Shown here: positions 4,736 through 44,524 of the stretch, in pieces
How the letters are laid out: each line of letters begins with the position of its first letter
Numbering within the stretch: position 1 is the first letter of the stretch
Assembly: GCA_013239625.1 (NCBI GenBank)
Contig: MU057343.1
Coordinates: 10,396,825-10,460,539, forward strand
Direction of reading: 5' to 3'
Source of the DNA: Lama guanicoe
Taxonomy: Eukaryota
Length of the DNA: 63,715 nt
Notes under the pieces: generated by a model
Databases searched by the model: none
What the model saw: the letters and a program-made list of their open reading frames with translations, nothing else
What the model was told of the DNA's origin: nothing
Program-made: the position numbers and the translations under genes

Positions 4736-5329
4736 CCCTGTCTCCAGTAGCGGTAATTTGATTATGAGGCACCAAATCCCAGTCAAAATCACTGAAAGGC
4801 AAGTGGGATAATTCGTGGAACCGCAGGGGAGAAGTGCAGCCCAGACTCCAGAGGAGGCAGAGTCCTGCTCTCCCACCTGTTTCCGAGGCTCCCTGCTCTC
4901 GCACCGCTGTTGCTGTCTGCACTTCTGCTTCCCCTCCCCTCCCTCTGCTGGCAGGCCCTCTCAGCTCAGTTTCCACGTGGCCCAGACGTGGCCACCGTAG
5001 CTCCGGTTCACAGCATTCTCCAGGTGAAGAACCAGACAGAGCTTAGCTTGAAACCCTTGAATCTCTGCGGTCCACCTCCTGCAGTCATCTGTGCCCAGAG
5101 GGAGGGCCCTCTGGGCTGTTACCTGCTCAGCAGGGACAACAGGAAGAGAAGGAGGGGGACACATGGCAGATTCTGTGAGAAAATGGCTTGGGGTGAGGAG
5201 GAGATAATGGGAACCCCCAGGAAAGTCATTCAAGAAGCTTGAACTTTTATTCTCTTTGGAAGCTTACCTCCCAAGCATAAATCCCAGTTATGTCAGTTTT
5301 TGTCCTTGACTTGTGCGGTGTTTAACTGT

Positions 5330-5540
5330 AGACTTCTCCCTGCTTCTTGAAGCTCCTGTTTCATTCAGTTTCCACATAAATGCATGATCTTGGTTATTCT
5401 CCTACCTTTTTGATAGCTGCTGCTTCTTTTCTGGCCCCTCTTTCTCTTCCCCCTTAAATAATGAATACTTTCTGAGGTCATGTCATTGTGTCTGCTCTCT
5501 TTTCCCTAGTTGTCTGTCCCTTGGTGAACTCAACCACAGC
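5330..5540 (+). mobile_element. L2 fragment (RT region)
   Basis: Pyrimidine-rich L2-like ctccctgcttcttgaagc...ttctcctacct...ccttaaat...cccttggtgaactcaacc. Confidence 0.55.
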
Positions 5541-27525: not shown

Positions 27526-27589
27526 AATACTAATGAAATGTGAGCAAAGTCTTTGAGGGTCAGTACAAGATTACCATTCTCCTCCCTTC

Positions 27590-27785
27590 TATGCAGCTAG
27601 CTATGCTCTAGATGGTGCAGGATCTGTTAGCCTGAGACCCTGAGTGAGGCCAGTGTTGAGCAGAGCCCCCCTGCTGCTGAGAGATGAACTTGTGAAATGC
27701 GTGAGCAATACACTTTTGCTTTAAGCCACTGAAACATGGGCTTGCTTGTTACTGCCGCCTAAGCAGCCTCTCCTGACTGATGCAG
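27590..27785 (+). mobile_element. MLT1 (H/I/J-type) LTR 3' portion
   Basis: gagcagagcccc...tttaagccactgaaacatggg...ttgttactgccgc...tcctgactgatgca. Confidence 0.75.
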
Positions 27786-31462: not shown

Positions 31463-31825
31463 TGGTGTGGTCTGAGTATATGTGACCCCTACAAATCCCT
31501 ATGATGAAATCCTAGCCTCTAAGGTGGTGGCATTATTAAGAGGAGAGGCATTTAGGACGTGATTACGTCAGGAGGGCAGAACCTTCCTGAATCGGATTAG
31601 CACTCCCGTGAAAGAGGCTCTAGAGACATCTCTTGCCCCTCTTCTACCGCGTGAGGACACAGCAGGAAGTTGGCAGTCTGCAGGCCAGAGGAGAGCCTTC
31701 ACCTGGCCATGCTGGTGCCCTCATCCTGGACTCCAGTCTCCAGAACAGTGAGAGATAGCTTTCTGTTGTTTATAAGCTACCCCGTCTGTGGTATTTTATC
31801 ATAGTAGCCCAAACAGACTAAGACA
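31463..31825 (+). mobile_element. Solo MLT1A0-like LTR
   Basis: tggtgtggtctgagt...gtgaggacacagc...ccagtctccagaacagtgaga...agcccaaacagactaagaca; flanks ctagg/ctggg resemble a decayed 5-bp TSD. Confidence 0.9.
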
Positions 31826-38200: not shown

Positions 38201-40959
38201 CTCAGGAAATGTCCTGGGACTTACAACACCCTGGGCTGACATCTAGTCGGGGCTCCCCAGCAAGGGTGCCTTCTGGTTCTCAGTGGTGCCCACGTAGGGA
38301 GCTTTAGAGAGGGGCAGGGTGCAATGGTTATTTCCCACTCAGAAGCTGCCCAGAGTTCTGAATGCTCGTCTATGCAAAATAGAGTCTTTTCACCTGAGCT
38401 GCTTAGTATAAATTTGAAGTCTGAGTGCTTATCTTATATCATAAATATTTGCAGGAATGCTGGAAGAGGGGGGAGCTGCCACCCAGCAGTGTTTCTGGAA
38501 AGAATTCCCTGGGGGAAGGAGGGTGAGATATGCCAGGCCCAGGCACCCGCTCTGGGCCACGGCAGAGCACCTCGTTTCTGCAGTGACATGCTTGGTTCCA
38601 GTTGTTATGCCGCTGGGTTCCCACCGCCGGCCTGTCTACGAACCCCTGCTACGATGAGATGCAAAGATTTAACGGTTTCAAGAGGAAGGCTACCTAATTT
38701 GACACACATTTGACACACACATTTGACACATTCCCCGCATTCCTGTGCTGGAATAACGCCACCTGTAAGCTGGTGAGATGGTGTTTTCCATGGGTGGTAA
38801 CCCAGGAAGCTGCCCTTTTCACCCCGGTGTGGGAAGGGAGGTCTCACACATTTTTTCCACAGTAATTTGATTTCATTGAGAACAACTGCAGGAGCTTCTG
38901 TTGGGAATGCTGCCCTAGGTTCAGTGTTGAGGTCATTATTGGTATTAGATCTTCCAGGTCTGTGACAGAGTTAAGTTCTATTGAATTCATCCAGGAAGAC
39001 TGTCATGAGTTCTGTGCTTCAGAACAGGCAGGGAGCGAGCATGTCACCGTCGTGATGAAGATTACCCCTAGTCTGGGGGACAGGTGGTTTGAGTGTTTTG
39101 AAAAGCCAAAACAGCCTGCAACTTTAACTAACAAAGCTTCCCTGGATCCTGGGTTGGCACTACAATCATCTTTTTTCTTGCTGTGGGTTTTAATCGTCAG
39201 AGTTTTTATATGTGGGGTCCTCCATTCAGTTTCAGAGTTCTGACGGACCAAAGGTTAGCTTGGGGAATGAGGTCTAACCTCCCTCCTCCCCCAAGCCAAC
39301 CTTAATAAAACCACAATTTGAGGAGAAGTATAGCATACTTGGTACACAAATATAGTTTCAAATCAAGTCTGAGAGCCCCATCTTTCAACCATGTGGCCAC
39401 CCCTAAGACTCTCTCTAAAGAAATTTTGGAGACTCCATTAGTAGACCGAATCTAAGAAGTATTACACTTAGAAAAAATCCTGGGTAAGGCAGCATTCTGT
39501 AAGGAGAACTGCTTTCTTAGCTCCCCAGCTTTGACTGCAGCTCTCATTTAATCCAAATATCTATTTATAAGAGCATTTGGAGAGATCCTTTAACTTGGGT
39601 GTTAAAAACAAAAACTAAAAAGAACATATTAAGAAGGAACCCACAGGATGATTTGAGCTACATGTATTTTAATACATAATTAACATGGGTATTGTTATAT
39701 ACAGAAATACTAACCCAGTGTGTCCCTTTAAACATTTCTCAGTTCCTTCCCCTTAAGTCCTTTATGCAGGTGTGTGTAAGAGAATTGCCTTCGGTTTTGG
39801 TGGGGTGTGCTTTATCTTAATGTAATACCCAAGTTCACAGTGACCCCTCTGCGGGAAGGGTCTGTGTGGCCTGTGATGGTGCTCTTATTTATGAACTGAA
39901 GAATATTCTCCATGTTGGCATATGTTCTAATTCAAAATCTACTCCAAATTCTGAGCCTCTAAAGATGTAACTTTCCTCCAGCATTCTTTGCTCACTGCCT
40001 GCCTTGATTTACTTATTTCCCTGGGCTTGGCCTTGTAGCTTTCTGTCTCTCTTTGAATACTTTCTGCCTGCTACCTCTGTGCACTGCATTATCTCCTCAC
40101 TGAAGGGCGAAGGAAATGTTTGATATTTTATTCCAACAAATATTGAATATCTACCATGTCAGGCATTGGGCTAGGTGCTGTATGGAAGAGCAACTTCCAA
40201 ATTTAATCTGAGTTGAAAACAGATTCCACTGCGCTGCAGAACATGCTCACCTTGATCTTTCCTGAGAGGCACTATCAGTGCCCACTCTGGTTACAATAGC
40301 TCAGATTCTCACACTTAACAATGTTATGCCCCCCATGGAGGCTACACAATCAATGACAGCAGAGCTTACACAAGAGAAGTTTTGGAGAAACGTTATTGGT
40401 TACAGAGATGCTAATTATTTCCTTCAACGATTATTTCCTACTTTCCTCTAGGTGTTCGTGCTAGGGAAGTTCTCTCTCCAAACACAGCCCCAAAGGGAGT
40501 TCCTTAAGTGCTATGAGACCTTGTCTACAGCTGATTGCATTGGATATGGATGCCTGACCCAAGATGAGCCAGCCACATTTAAACCAAAGACATAGAGACC
40601 ACATTCGTTGTCTTGGAAACTTGAACTAGAAAGGCAAGTAGTCGTGAATGCTGAGACCTGCACTGTGTGGCCTCCACGATGGGCCAAACACAGGCATTGG
40701 TGCAAGCTGTCAGCACAGGAAGACAACAAGGGGACTCCTCTGTCTTAACCAGAGATCTGAGTACAAAGAAATGTCTCTCAGTTATGAATCAAGAATTCTG
40801 AATCAAGAACCTATGCCTTCCTTGAGTTTGAGTTTTGAATTTATGCTGAATTTGTGGTCTAAGAATGTTTGAGATGAGCTAGTAACAAGAAAATGTGATT
40901 CTAGACCACGATGCCGCACAACTGTGAACCAAATGCAGAAATCTCTACTGACTTACCCT

Positions 40960-42705
40960 CAGTGGAGGCCACACACACGGGATTCCCATAAAGAAGGCAA
41001 CAGTGAAGACAAGCTTACCCTCCAAAATTACAAAACGTGTTAGCAAACGATCCCCTGATGGTGAACCAACAGATAGAACACACTTAGGATCAGATTGCCA
41101 GTAACTTCAGATAGCAGATCTGTTGTTTCAGGACTGTAAGTGTGTTTAAAATGTTAGAGACATAAAATAAGGAATTAGAAACTTAATAAATGTGCAAGGT
41201 TCATGTAAAAAGAAAATACAGGTTTGAAAAAGAAAAATTCTAGAAGCAATAACTACAGTCATTAATTTGAATAGATTAGATATGGCTAAAGAGAAAATTA
41301 ATATGCTGGAAGAGACATCTGATTCCAATTCAGAATATATCACAAAGACAAAAACGTATGAGAGAGTAATTAAAGATATGGGTGATAAAATGAGAAATAA
41401 TAAGAATCTCAAGAAAGTAGAGAATGAGGAAAAGAAATACTCAAAGACAAAAAAGGCTGAGGATTTTCTATAATGGTTAAAAGATAGGATCACAAGATTC
41501 AGAACGCTACAGCAAGCCATGAGCTGAATAAATAAGAGCAAATCCAAACCTTGAGTCCACTATCATGAAAATGCAGAACACCAAAGCCAAAGAGTTCTCA
41601 AAGCAACTGCAGAGAGAAGGCATATTTCCTTTGTAGGAAATTGATTAGATAGGCAACAGGTTCTCAACAGCAATAACAGAAACCAAAAGTCAGTAAGATA
41701 ATATATCCAAAATGCTAAGAGAAAATAACTGTCACTTCTTCATCCACTTAAATTATTATTAAACAACAGAGATGAAATTATTTGTTTTTAATTATCAAAG
41801 ACTCTCATGAAGAAGCTCCTAAAGAATTTACTTCAAGTAGAAGAAAACTGAACCAGAAGAGAATGAATGAAATCCAAGAAGGGATACTAAATTTAGACAA
41901 GTATCATCTGTGGAAAATAACAATAATATTGACAAAAAATATATATTGACAAATTTTAAGGGTACCAAATAAAGTGGAACTGAAGTATTGAACAATATGT
42001 AAAAAGAGTGGGAGATGTTTGGATCTCTGAAGACTGGGAGGTAAGTAGAGATGCTTACTTATTTTATACTTCTTAAAGGCAAGTATGTGTGATAAAAATG
42101 TAAAGATCACACCTAACGTGGTTGTATGTGTATACAAGCATAAAAATGAGATGAATAACTACCAAAACAGTACAATAGGAAAAGAGGGGAAAGGAAACTT
42201 GATCAATCCATTAAAAGGCAGGAAAAAAGAAAAGCAAAGATTATATATAGCAAAGTAAATGTAAAACCCCAAATAAAATTACAGACATAAATCCTAAATA
42301 AATGTAAATAGACTAAATGTGTCAATTAAAACACAGAGATTGTTAACTTGGAGGAAAAAAAAATCTGTGGTTTATAAGAGATTCATCTAAACTATTAGGG
42401 CAGAGGAAAAAAACAAAGGCAAAGAATGGGGAAAGAGCTATCAGGCCAAAAAAGGAAGTTAATAGAATTACCAGAATTTTATCAGACTTTAGGGCAAACT
42501 TCATGATTAGGGATAAAGATTGTTATAAAAATAGAACAATTCTAATATCTACCCAGTAGCCTCAAATAAAAGGCAAAAACGGAATTCCCAGTATGAACTG
42601 TCAAACATACAATCATAACGAGAGGAGATGTTTTAACACATCTCTTTAGATAGGTAAAAAAAAATTCTTTTAAATTAGCAAGGAAGATTTGAATAAATCA
42701 ATTTT
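40960..42705 (+). mobile_element. Ancient L1 5' half: ORF1 remnant, inter-ORF region and start of the ORF2 endonuclease
   Basis: ORF 41267..41473 NRLDMAKEKINMLEE resembles the ORF1p coiled coil; aaatgtaaatagactaaatgtgtcaattaaaacacagagattg resembles the ORF2p start (LNVNGLNxPIKRxRL); strongly A-rich. Confidence 0.8.
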
Positions 42706-43056
42706 GGAATGATAGTGGCAATTATCTACATAGTGCTTCTGATTCCCGCTCAAAAAGGCTTAGGGTCCTTCTTTCTGAAATTCATTTGGGAAGGCGAACT
42801 TTCCTCAGGACACTCTTTTATGGGGGGGGGTAGGAATCTGGATTTTCTGACCTTTAACCTGTGCAGGACAGGACTTCCTTGCATAGATGAGGCCCTTTCC
42901 AGCCTTGCCTCAGGGAGGGGGTGATTTTTGGCACATGAATACTGCTGACCGTTATGCTAACTTGGCAATGATTTTTTTCCTTCTGCTTTTTAAATTAGTG
43001 CAGGCTAGTATGTCCTCAAGATTCTTTGCACACAGCTGAGGCAGCAGAAAGTCACA

Positions 43057-43502
43057 CGCGTTAGTTAAGGTGCAGGCTAAACTGCTGTCACAAAGACACT
43101 GAAGAATAAATACTGCGGCTCACATGAGATTGTTCATTTCTCTCTCACAGAGCAGCCCAGATGTAGGTGGCAGCGCGGAGCAGGTAGATGGCGCTGCTCC
43201 TTAGGTCGTCCAGCTTCCTTCTATTTTCTTGTCCTCGCGTTCATTCCCACCTCTGCGTTGCAGCCCACGGGCAGGGCCCGCGGCCCCAGAGTTCGCGCGC
43301 GTCGGTGCCGCGGGCGGGCCTCGCGCGGGAGCTCGGTCACGTGACCGCCCGGGCCGCGCGGGAGCTTGGGAAACCTTGTCGCTAGCTGCGCCGCCATCTT
43401 CTTTGCTCCGCGATACCTGTGTACGTCTTGGGGAGTCAGCCTATTCCTAGAAGGAGGAAGACCAGACTGGACTGCAGGAAAAAATGAGCAGTGTCAGCCA
43501 CA
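43057..43502 (-). mobile_element. Full-length ancient solo MLT1 (I/J/K-type) LTR hosting the CpG island
   Basis: Left end ttagttaaggtgcaggctaaactgctgtcacaaag...catttctctctcaca and right end gaaggaggaag...agcagtgtcagccaca match MLT1 antisense termini; the central block aligns to the MLT1 motif gtcacatgg...gggaggctgggaaatgtagtc.ctagctg. Confidence 0.75.
43170..43425. promoter_or_regulatory. CpG island / candidate promoter
   Basis: About 34 CpG in about 255 bp by hand count, in an otherwise CpG-depleted window; GC box gggcggg near 43312-43318; E-box GTCACGTGAC at 43336-43345; YY1-type GCCGCCATCTT at 43390-43400 and AGATGGCG at 43186-43193. Confidence 0.8.
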
Positions 43503-43519
43503 CCGTAAGACTATTTCTA

Positions 43520-43660
43520 ATCATAGCCCCACTCATTTCATTACCCGGGAGGGACATGGAGCCTCTCAGAACCCCCGTTTTACCGTCTAGAAAACTGCAT
43601 CTCACACAGTTATTAATAGCCATTAAGATGACGAGAGTGAAAGTCAGGGCTCCCAGGGCT
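43520..43660 (-). mobile_element. MIR fragment
   Basis: cccccgttttaccgtctagaaaactgcatctcacacagtta resembles the MIR core cccattttacagatgaggaaactgaggctcagagaggtta. Confidence 0.55.
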
Positions 43661-44524
43661 CTCTGTGGGTCTCTGGCCCTGTATTCCCTCCTCTGCCCAC
43701 AGCAGAGGCCCCGCGAGGCCACGGGCACTGCGTGTGGGGACGGGTGTCACAGTCGACCAGCCCCTGCCTCTGCCTGCTCTTCCTGAAGTTCTTTCTTCTT
43801 TTCTCTGAGCCCCTGTCTCCCTCCCCCACCTCCCCAATGGGAGGATTCTGCAGATTGATGGACTATCACCTAGAAGGTGGGGGCAGACCCCAGATCCCTG
43901 TGTTCTTGAAGGAAAGAATTAATGAGTCCCTCAGAGTTGTCTCTGGGCTGGCCCTCATCTCGGTGCCTGCTCTGCTGCGGCTGGGACGGCCCAGTGCGGA
44001 GAGAAAGGCAGGCGGCTACAAAGCGTTGGTTGTGCTGCCCTGTGCGTGATCGGTCAGGTTTTGTTTGCCATCCTTTGTGCCCAGTGGTGCCGGTCACACG
44101 CTGAGTTCCTCCCAGAAATCTGATTGTTTGCAGTTGTAAAGTGCTGGAGCTTGGGTCTGTCCGAGCAGAGGGTTAAATCATGGAGTGTTTTACAAGGGCA
44201 GCNNNNNNNNNNNNNNNNNNNNNNNNNNNNNNNNNNNNNNNNNNNNNNNNNNNNNNNNNNNNNNNNNNNNNNNNNNNNNNNNNNNNNNNNNNNNNNNNNN
44301 NNNNNNNNNNNNNNNNNNNNNNNNNNNNNNNNNNNNNNNNNNNNNNNNNNCTTCTGAACCCCAAACACATTCCCATGCACGGTTTCCGTTGAGACGGTGG
44401 AAAGATACTCTTTCCTTCTTAGCCAAAAATATTTAACGGGGTGGATTTCTACAATTCCATCGCTTTATGCATGAGAAATATTTCTTTTGATCAGACTAGT
44501 TTGCAAGCATGTGGGTCAAATTTA

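Follow-up and report, generated by a model that had tools for sequence, protein, structure and literature searches.

A CpG island at 43170–43425 of the analysed window (the whole stretch of DNA under study, 63,715 nt) was found inside an ancient MLT1-like solo LTR of the ERVL-MaLR group, which occupies 43060–43503 on the minus strand. Comparison with paralogs suggests that this LTR probably became an orphan CpG island by germline hypomethylation followed by GC-biased gene conversion (gBGC), and it probably now acts as promoter-like open chromatin and not as the start of a coding gene. The identification as an MLT1-like solo LTR and the G/C bias of this copy appear much more secure than the account as a whole.

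The CpG island and its LTR

The island contained 34 CpG in 256 bp with a GC content of 0.68 and an O/E of 1.15, in agreement with an earlier sequence-only reading that had put it at about 34 CpG in about 255 bp. The GC content rose to 0.78–0.82 at 43251–43350, and TpG was depleted in the island (0.72). The region of 43057–43502 held 37 CpG, the whole LTR of 444 bp held 35 (GC 0.59, O/E 0.90), and the O/E of the whole window was 0.23. The island therefore fits the sequence definition of at least 200 bp, GC above 50%, and O/E of at least 0.6. A scan using 200-bp windows (GC at least 0.55, O/E at least 0.65) revealed no second island in the window, so the earlier description of it as the only one in 64 kb was borne out. 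Within 100 kb on either side of the island, the next-best 256-bp cluster had 16 CpG. A single denser 256-bp cluster (37 CpG) was found in 664 kb, located at −282.6 kb (L055:7000–7900) and 8 kb before the first coding exon of CCDC171; this cluster is likely the CCDC171 promoter. The 601-bp region around the island gave one genome match, itself. The island is narrow, and CpG returned to background at both LTR ends. Outside the LTR, a GC-raised shoulder could be seen on one side only (43504–44200; GC 0.55, 22 CpG, O/E 0.41), while the other side fell to GC 0.32–0.38 and is presumably an old LINE-like fragment.

The LTR was collinear with the genome paralogs L003–L033 from its TG start to its 3' end, with an unchanged order of the two ends, the core, and the two internal landmarks, and its length lies within the 400–550 bp or so of MLT1 LTRs. 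The antisense MLT1 LTR earlier read around the island was thus recovered as an MLT1-like element on the minus strand. Alignment across the LTR, evaluated with the first 31 paralogous copies and 200 dinucleotide shuffles, held for five of the seven internal segments, which exceeded the shuffles at p ≤ 0.01 (z 4.3, 2.5, 8.0, 6.3, and 6.9); it was marginal at 43150–43200 (z 1.7) and failed in the middle at 43240–43325 (z 1.0). No paralog similarity was detected past either LTR end in the 31 copies (outer flanks z −0.7 and 1.3), nor did the 3' flank resemble that of L003. Neither internal sequence nor a second LTR adjoined the element, and no second copy of it was present in the window, as for a solo LTR. 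One loose alignment that ran on into internal sequence was rejected, as its score of 8 compared with up to 15 in shuffles. No target-site duplication was recognisable at the LTR ends, which is expected at such age. The MLT1 label of the paralogs is our assumption, based on the motif of the earlier reading and on the MLT1J-SBS2 link of a published paper (PMC3627581), and we take the subfamily of the focal LTR to be J-like by its core.

Two LTR-like copies at 3.4 and 29.4 kb, which we take to be MLT1, contained 0 and 2 CpG, confirming the CpG loss noticed in them earlier. The focal LTR gave no useful alignment to the other LTR-like copies of the window. Further LTR pieces, presumably MLT1-like, were seen at 27560–27785 and 31475–31825 with 2 and 7 CpG, and the 31.5-kb piece aligned to the 3.4-kb copy. 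A short tandem run of approximately three 12-bp units resembling tttgacacacat was also present at 38697–38730.

Direction of change relative to paralogs

The paralog sample consisted of all 58 exact genome copies of a 24-letter core, a selection that is biased towards unconverted cores. The median in these copies was 3 CpG per 445 bp, compared to 35 in the focal copy. For the direction of change, 32 of 61 copies (the 58 and three more) aligning at z of at least 4 were used, with L101 left out. Among 360 informative sites, 15 had G/C in the focal copy and A/T in most of the paralogs, and one showed the opposite (p 5e-4), while the same weak/strong site test in the 32 control copies gave 143:138; the direction is polarised on paralogs of mixed subfamilies, not on orthologs, and is based on only 21 called sites. 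This count agrees with the earlier statement that most differences run towards G/C and CpG. Outside the 24-mer used for selecting the copies, the ratio was 12:0.

Six of the 15 G/C-ward differences were CG in the focal copy and TG or CA in the paralogs, and these look like CpGs spared from decay. The other nine were not of the deamination type (six were transversions), against one in the opposite direction, and look like fresh G/C gains. This 9:1 ratio represents a weak-to-strong excess beyond CpG deamination, of the shape produced by gBGC, although the weak/strong ratio at non-CpG sites alone, 1.7, was within the control range (maximum 1.75). In pairwise comparison, island transversions had a G/C ratio of 4.0 compared to 0.38–1.70 in controls. 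In the repeat fragment right of the LTR, the G/C bias was uninformative (2:1 at 43 sites). Since spared CpGs and non-deamination G/C gains coexist, germline hypomethylation and gBGC were likely both at work. The earlier reading had proposed an unmethylated promoter or gBGC as alternatives; each finds its marks among these sites.

One of the 58 paralogs, L101 (G000:C7321:11504415–11505838, approximately 380–1060), was also a CpG island, with 28 CpG per 445 bp and an O/E of 0.78, and hence the focal case is not unique. L101 retained an intact SBS2-type core, showed a milder G/C bias (9:4), and lies in a CpG-richer neighbourhood, which makes it the natural comparison case. Just upstream of it is a cluster of CpGs that includes a YY1-like motif. 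A search for further CpG-converted cores gave five matches, consisting of the focal copy and four others with 5–9 CpG. For orthologs in metagenome contigs, a 19-letter scan gave six chance matches, none past 22 letters. Elsewhere in the surroundings, two copies of a 560-bp repeat with 73% identity were observed at L078:7223–7783 (+211 kb) and L088 at approximately 4950–5530 (+309 kb). The L078 copy is embedded in a patch rich in CpG, with 21 CpG per 256 bp and a loosely matching YY1 site, and is possibly another repeat-built island.

The most CpG-dense part of the LTR is its middle (43240–43325), which was single-copy in the genome. These 86 nt, being unaligned to paralogs, could be explained by a separately inserted GC-rich fragment, such as the 5' end of a retrocopy or a captured promoter, an outcome that the earlier reading had itself set as a test. 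This explanation is largely refuted and very improbable. The middle was 32–73 nt shorter than the paralog middle: the distance from the core to the next landmark was 148 nt compared to 180–221 nt in the copies with that landmark (8 of 31), and to the second landmark it was 229 nt compared to 244–305 nt in 6 of 31 copies. The middle also opens with a duplicate of adjacent LTR-derived sequence (43322–43369), in which 15-nt copies at 43322–43336 and 43355–43369 were 93% alike with a period of 33. An exact 12-mer repeat such as theirs was reached in 0.85% of 2000 dinucleotide shuffles. A shorter middle that opens with a local duplicate argues that no retrocopy was inserted. Further, the CpGs run on through alignable LTR on both sides, there was no poly(A) tail, and no donor locus could be found by genome searches that skip common words. 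The two duplicate copies flank an E-box, and both are in the CpG-rich derived state; therefore, the CpG gain likely came before the duplication.

Motifs, transcripts, and neighbouring genes

YY1 motifs have a strand bias, and the YY1-type motif AAGATGGCGGC at 43390–43400 on the minus strand had no other exact match in 664 kb. The form of the motif was taken from PMC13017510, according to whose available text YY1 works chiefly a short way downstream of the TSS and activates weak promoters. The CpG at 43393 within the motif is a gain relative to the paralogs. From this downstream position and the strand bias, transcription starts are predicted just right of 43400 on the minus strand. A 14-bp perfect palindrome at 43334–43347 contains the E-box, one of two GTCACGTGAC sites in 664 kb, which we take to be of the USF/TFE type. 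It was intact in five other copies and decayed to TG/CA forms in most. The state of its CpG across the paralogs was CG in 5, TG in 10, and CA in 4, and because all three occur, the CpG is considered ancestral. The YY1 site and the palindromic E-box together suggest a promoter-like layout. The family core at 43356–43379 (minus strand) was degenerate, with the ACTACA half lost and TTCCCA kept, while the paralog core carries the ACTACAn-TTCCCA (SBS2, ZNF143/THAP11) motif. The focal LTR contains no intact SBS2 motif of the kind expected in a ZNF143/THAP11-bound MLT1J copy.

The patch may instead be the fossil of a past recombination hotspot, made by gBGC alone and methylated or inert today (a 'BGC' or 'pseudo' island), with the YY1 and E-box matches as by-products. 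The nine non-deamination differences fit such a history, as do the local duplication and the deletion, which are compatible with double-strand-break repair; only a few changes would turn the family sequence into the YY1 match, and the E-box is an inherited feature. However, an O/E of 1.15, a TpG value of 0.72, and spared ancestral-type CpGs would be hard to keep for long under methylation, and GC drops again within the same LTR. We regard a hotspot fossil as unlikely, while granting it an appreciable chance.

To the left of the window, in a gene-poor stretch, lie exons of CCDC171 with a 100% match to camelid proteins. When 120 of 531 homologs were mapped, the coding exons of this gene began at −274.5 kb, and the stop codon fell at −11.4 kb. 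At one residue, the last exon agrees with the Vicugna entry and not with the Camelus entries, which makes a South American camelid the likely source. None of the 120 mapped homologs or isoforms put an exon inside the window and the stop codon is 54 kb from the island, which is therefore intergenic. A CCDC171-like match at +243.7 kb was weak (E 0.06–1) and was taken as chance. To the right, a minus-strand basonuclin-family gene ends approximately 340 kb from the island; we assume it to be BNC2 from Atlas cluster names and synteny.

A 58-codon ORF at 43221–43397 on the minus strand has its start ATG within the YY1 motif and is probably a by-product of GC richness. Protein searches found no homologs of this ORF or of a 65-aa ORF on the plus strand, and neither Pfam nor Rfam gave a match that passed the threshold; a conserved or annotated ORF, as expected of a de novo coding gene, was absent here. 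Rfam analysis of 42400–44200 returned one match only, below threshold (E 0.093). The LTR polyadenylation signal site at 43139–43144 (minus strand) reads AATGAA here; among 26 aligned copies, it was AATAAA in 9 and changed in 17. Candidate splice donors were scored crudely at 43250 and 43123 on the minus strand and at 43184 on the plus strand. For the wider stretch of 40500–44200, 20 of 24 listed runs contained part of its words. Fourteen RNA or guessed-RNA rows from five studies (five rows from two studies are on record as RNA) held 0.26–0.48 of the words, which is a region-wide share only, and six unlabelled rows held 0.91–0.95. The lower share in RNA may reflect partial cover or a related species and was not counted as evidence.

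It is possible that the LTR was exapted to drive a real gene. As a selected promoter of a spliced gene (lncRNA, piRNA precursor, oocyte transcript, or de novo coding gene), the island would explain a promoter-like motif set that is unique in 664 kb; the candidate donors would serve splicing, the weakened poly(A) signal would permit read-through, and MLT1 solo LTRs start oocyte transcripts in pig, according to the available text of bioRxiv 10.64898/2026.01.09.698515. Such a promoter is nevertheless improbable, given two ORFs without homologs, the lack of Pfam or Rfam matches above threshold, the 0 of 120 CCDC171 isoforms with an exon in the window, and a poly(A) signal that is changed in 17 of 26 paralogs too. 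Moreover, more than 93% of TE-derived TSSs are without a CpG island in the part of PMC12963367 consulted. The candidate lncRNA, piRNA, or de novo promoter of the sequence-only reading thus goes beyond the evidence, as BGC-type islands can arise without selection and need not be unmethylated or functional (PMC4121359, available text).

Proposed origin and related systems

In the favoured account of hypomethylation followed by gBGC, factors bound to sites native to the family, namely the SBS2 core and the E-box, would have protected the focal copy from methylation and spared its ancestral CpGs. Such hypomethylated promoter-like DNA would draw PRDM9-independent recombination, and the resulting gBGC would have brought in further G/C and CpG, made the YY1 site complete, and overwritten the SBS2 site. 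With the YY1 site and E-box in place, transcription would begin at a low level over a broad zone, most likely on the minus strand from just right of 43400, and proceed in the direction of the CCDC171 3' end. Alternatively, the element may act as an enhancer of a neighbouring gene. According to the searched text of PMC11161765, hypomethylated loci are recombination hotspots also in mammals whose Prdm9 is intact, and this is offered as a cause of the GC richness of CpG islands; that text does not mention camel, alpaca, or Vicugna. The PRDM9-independent hotspots of Joseph et al. in the same paper have the same predicted substitution footprint as the focal locus, for which the history of recombination and methylation is putative.

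The available text of Kocher et al. (PMC11170920) describes orphan CpG islands that are likewise intergenic, lack an annotated coding TSS, and combine one-way weak-to-strong change with spared CpGs, and it gives TE insertion and gBGC as routes to them. The 'hypodeamination' and 'BGC' classes of Cohen et al. (via the part of PMC4121359 consulted) have the same likeness to the focal island. Unlike the islands of Kocher et al., the focal island lies wholly within one recognisable ancient LTR; because islands were called there on repeat-masked genomes, LTR-internal ones were excluded. In human, LTRs make up 1.3% of CpG island sequence and 0.2% of TSS-associated islands (PMC12582260, in part).

The ZNF143/THAP11/ICN1-bound MLT1J copies of Ngondo-Mbongo et al. 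(PMC3627581) share the family core seen in the paralogs, and promoter SBS2 sites were proposed there to derive from MLT1J. They differ from the focal copy in that its SBS2 site is broken, and the bound copies are mostly outside promoters; the accessible text of that paper does not mention CpG islands for them. Pig MLT1D elements (bioRxiv 10.64898/2026.01.09.698515) and the human TE-TSS atlas (PMC12963367) also include ancient intergenic MaLR solo LTRs with a possible TSS. In the portions consulted, those promoters are typically CpG-poor, narrow, and tissue-specific, and one pig MLT1D case is methylated in sperm, whereas the focal copy is a CpG island with YY1 and E-box sites, known from sequence alone.

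A more specific scenario is that of a nascent promoter, in which an MLT1J-type LTR, seeded and kept open by its ZNF143/THAP11 (SBS2) site, became a default hotspot, and gBGC and a local duplication exchanged the viral motifs for a housekeeping YY1/E-box CpG-island promoter. This promoter would now produce an RNA that is specific to the lineage and lies antisense to the 3' end of CCDC171, or would tune the BNC2-like gene. Approximately 1 in 60 such LTRs would belong to this class, which would be missed by repeat-masked CpG island surveys. We put this forward tentatively and consider it rather unlikely.

Literature listings named no element at this locus. CpG-island LTRs are an uncommon but known kind, and the present case is a clear example of a known process. 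As the unconverted family is available in many copies, the growth of a CpG island from a dead LTR can be traced letter by letter. The locus separates spared ancestral CpGs from new G/C gains, allows the route from hypomethylation through a default hotspot and gBGC to an orphan CpG island to be put to the test at a single site, and draws attention to islands left out by surveys on repeat-masked genomes.
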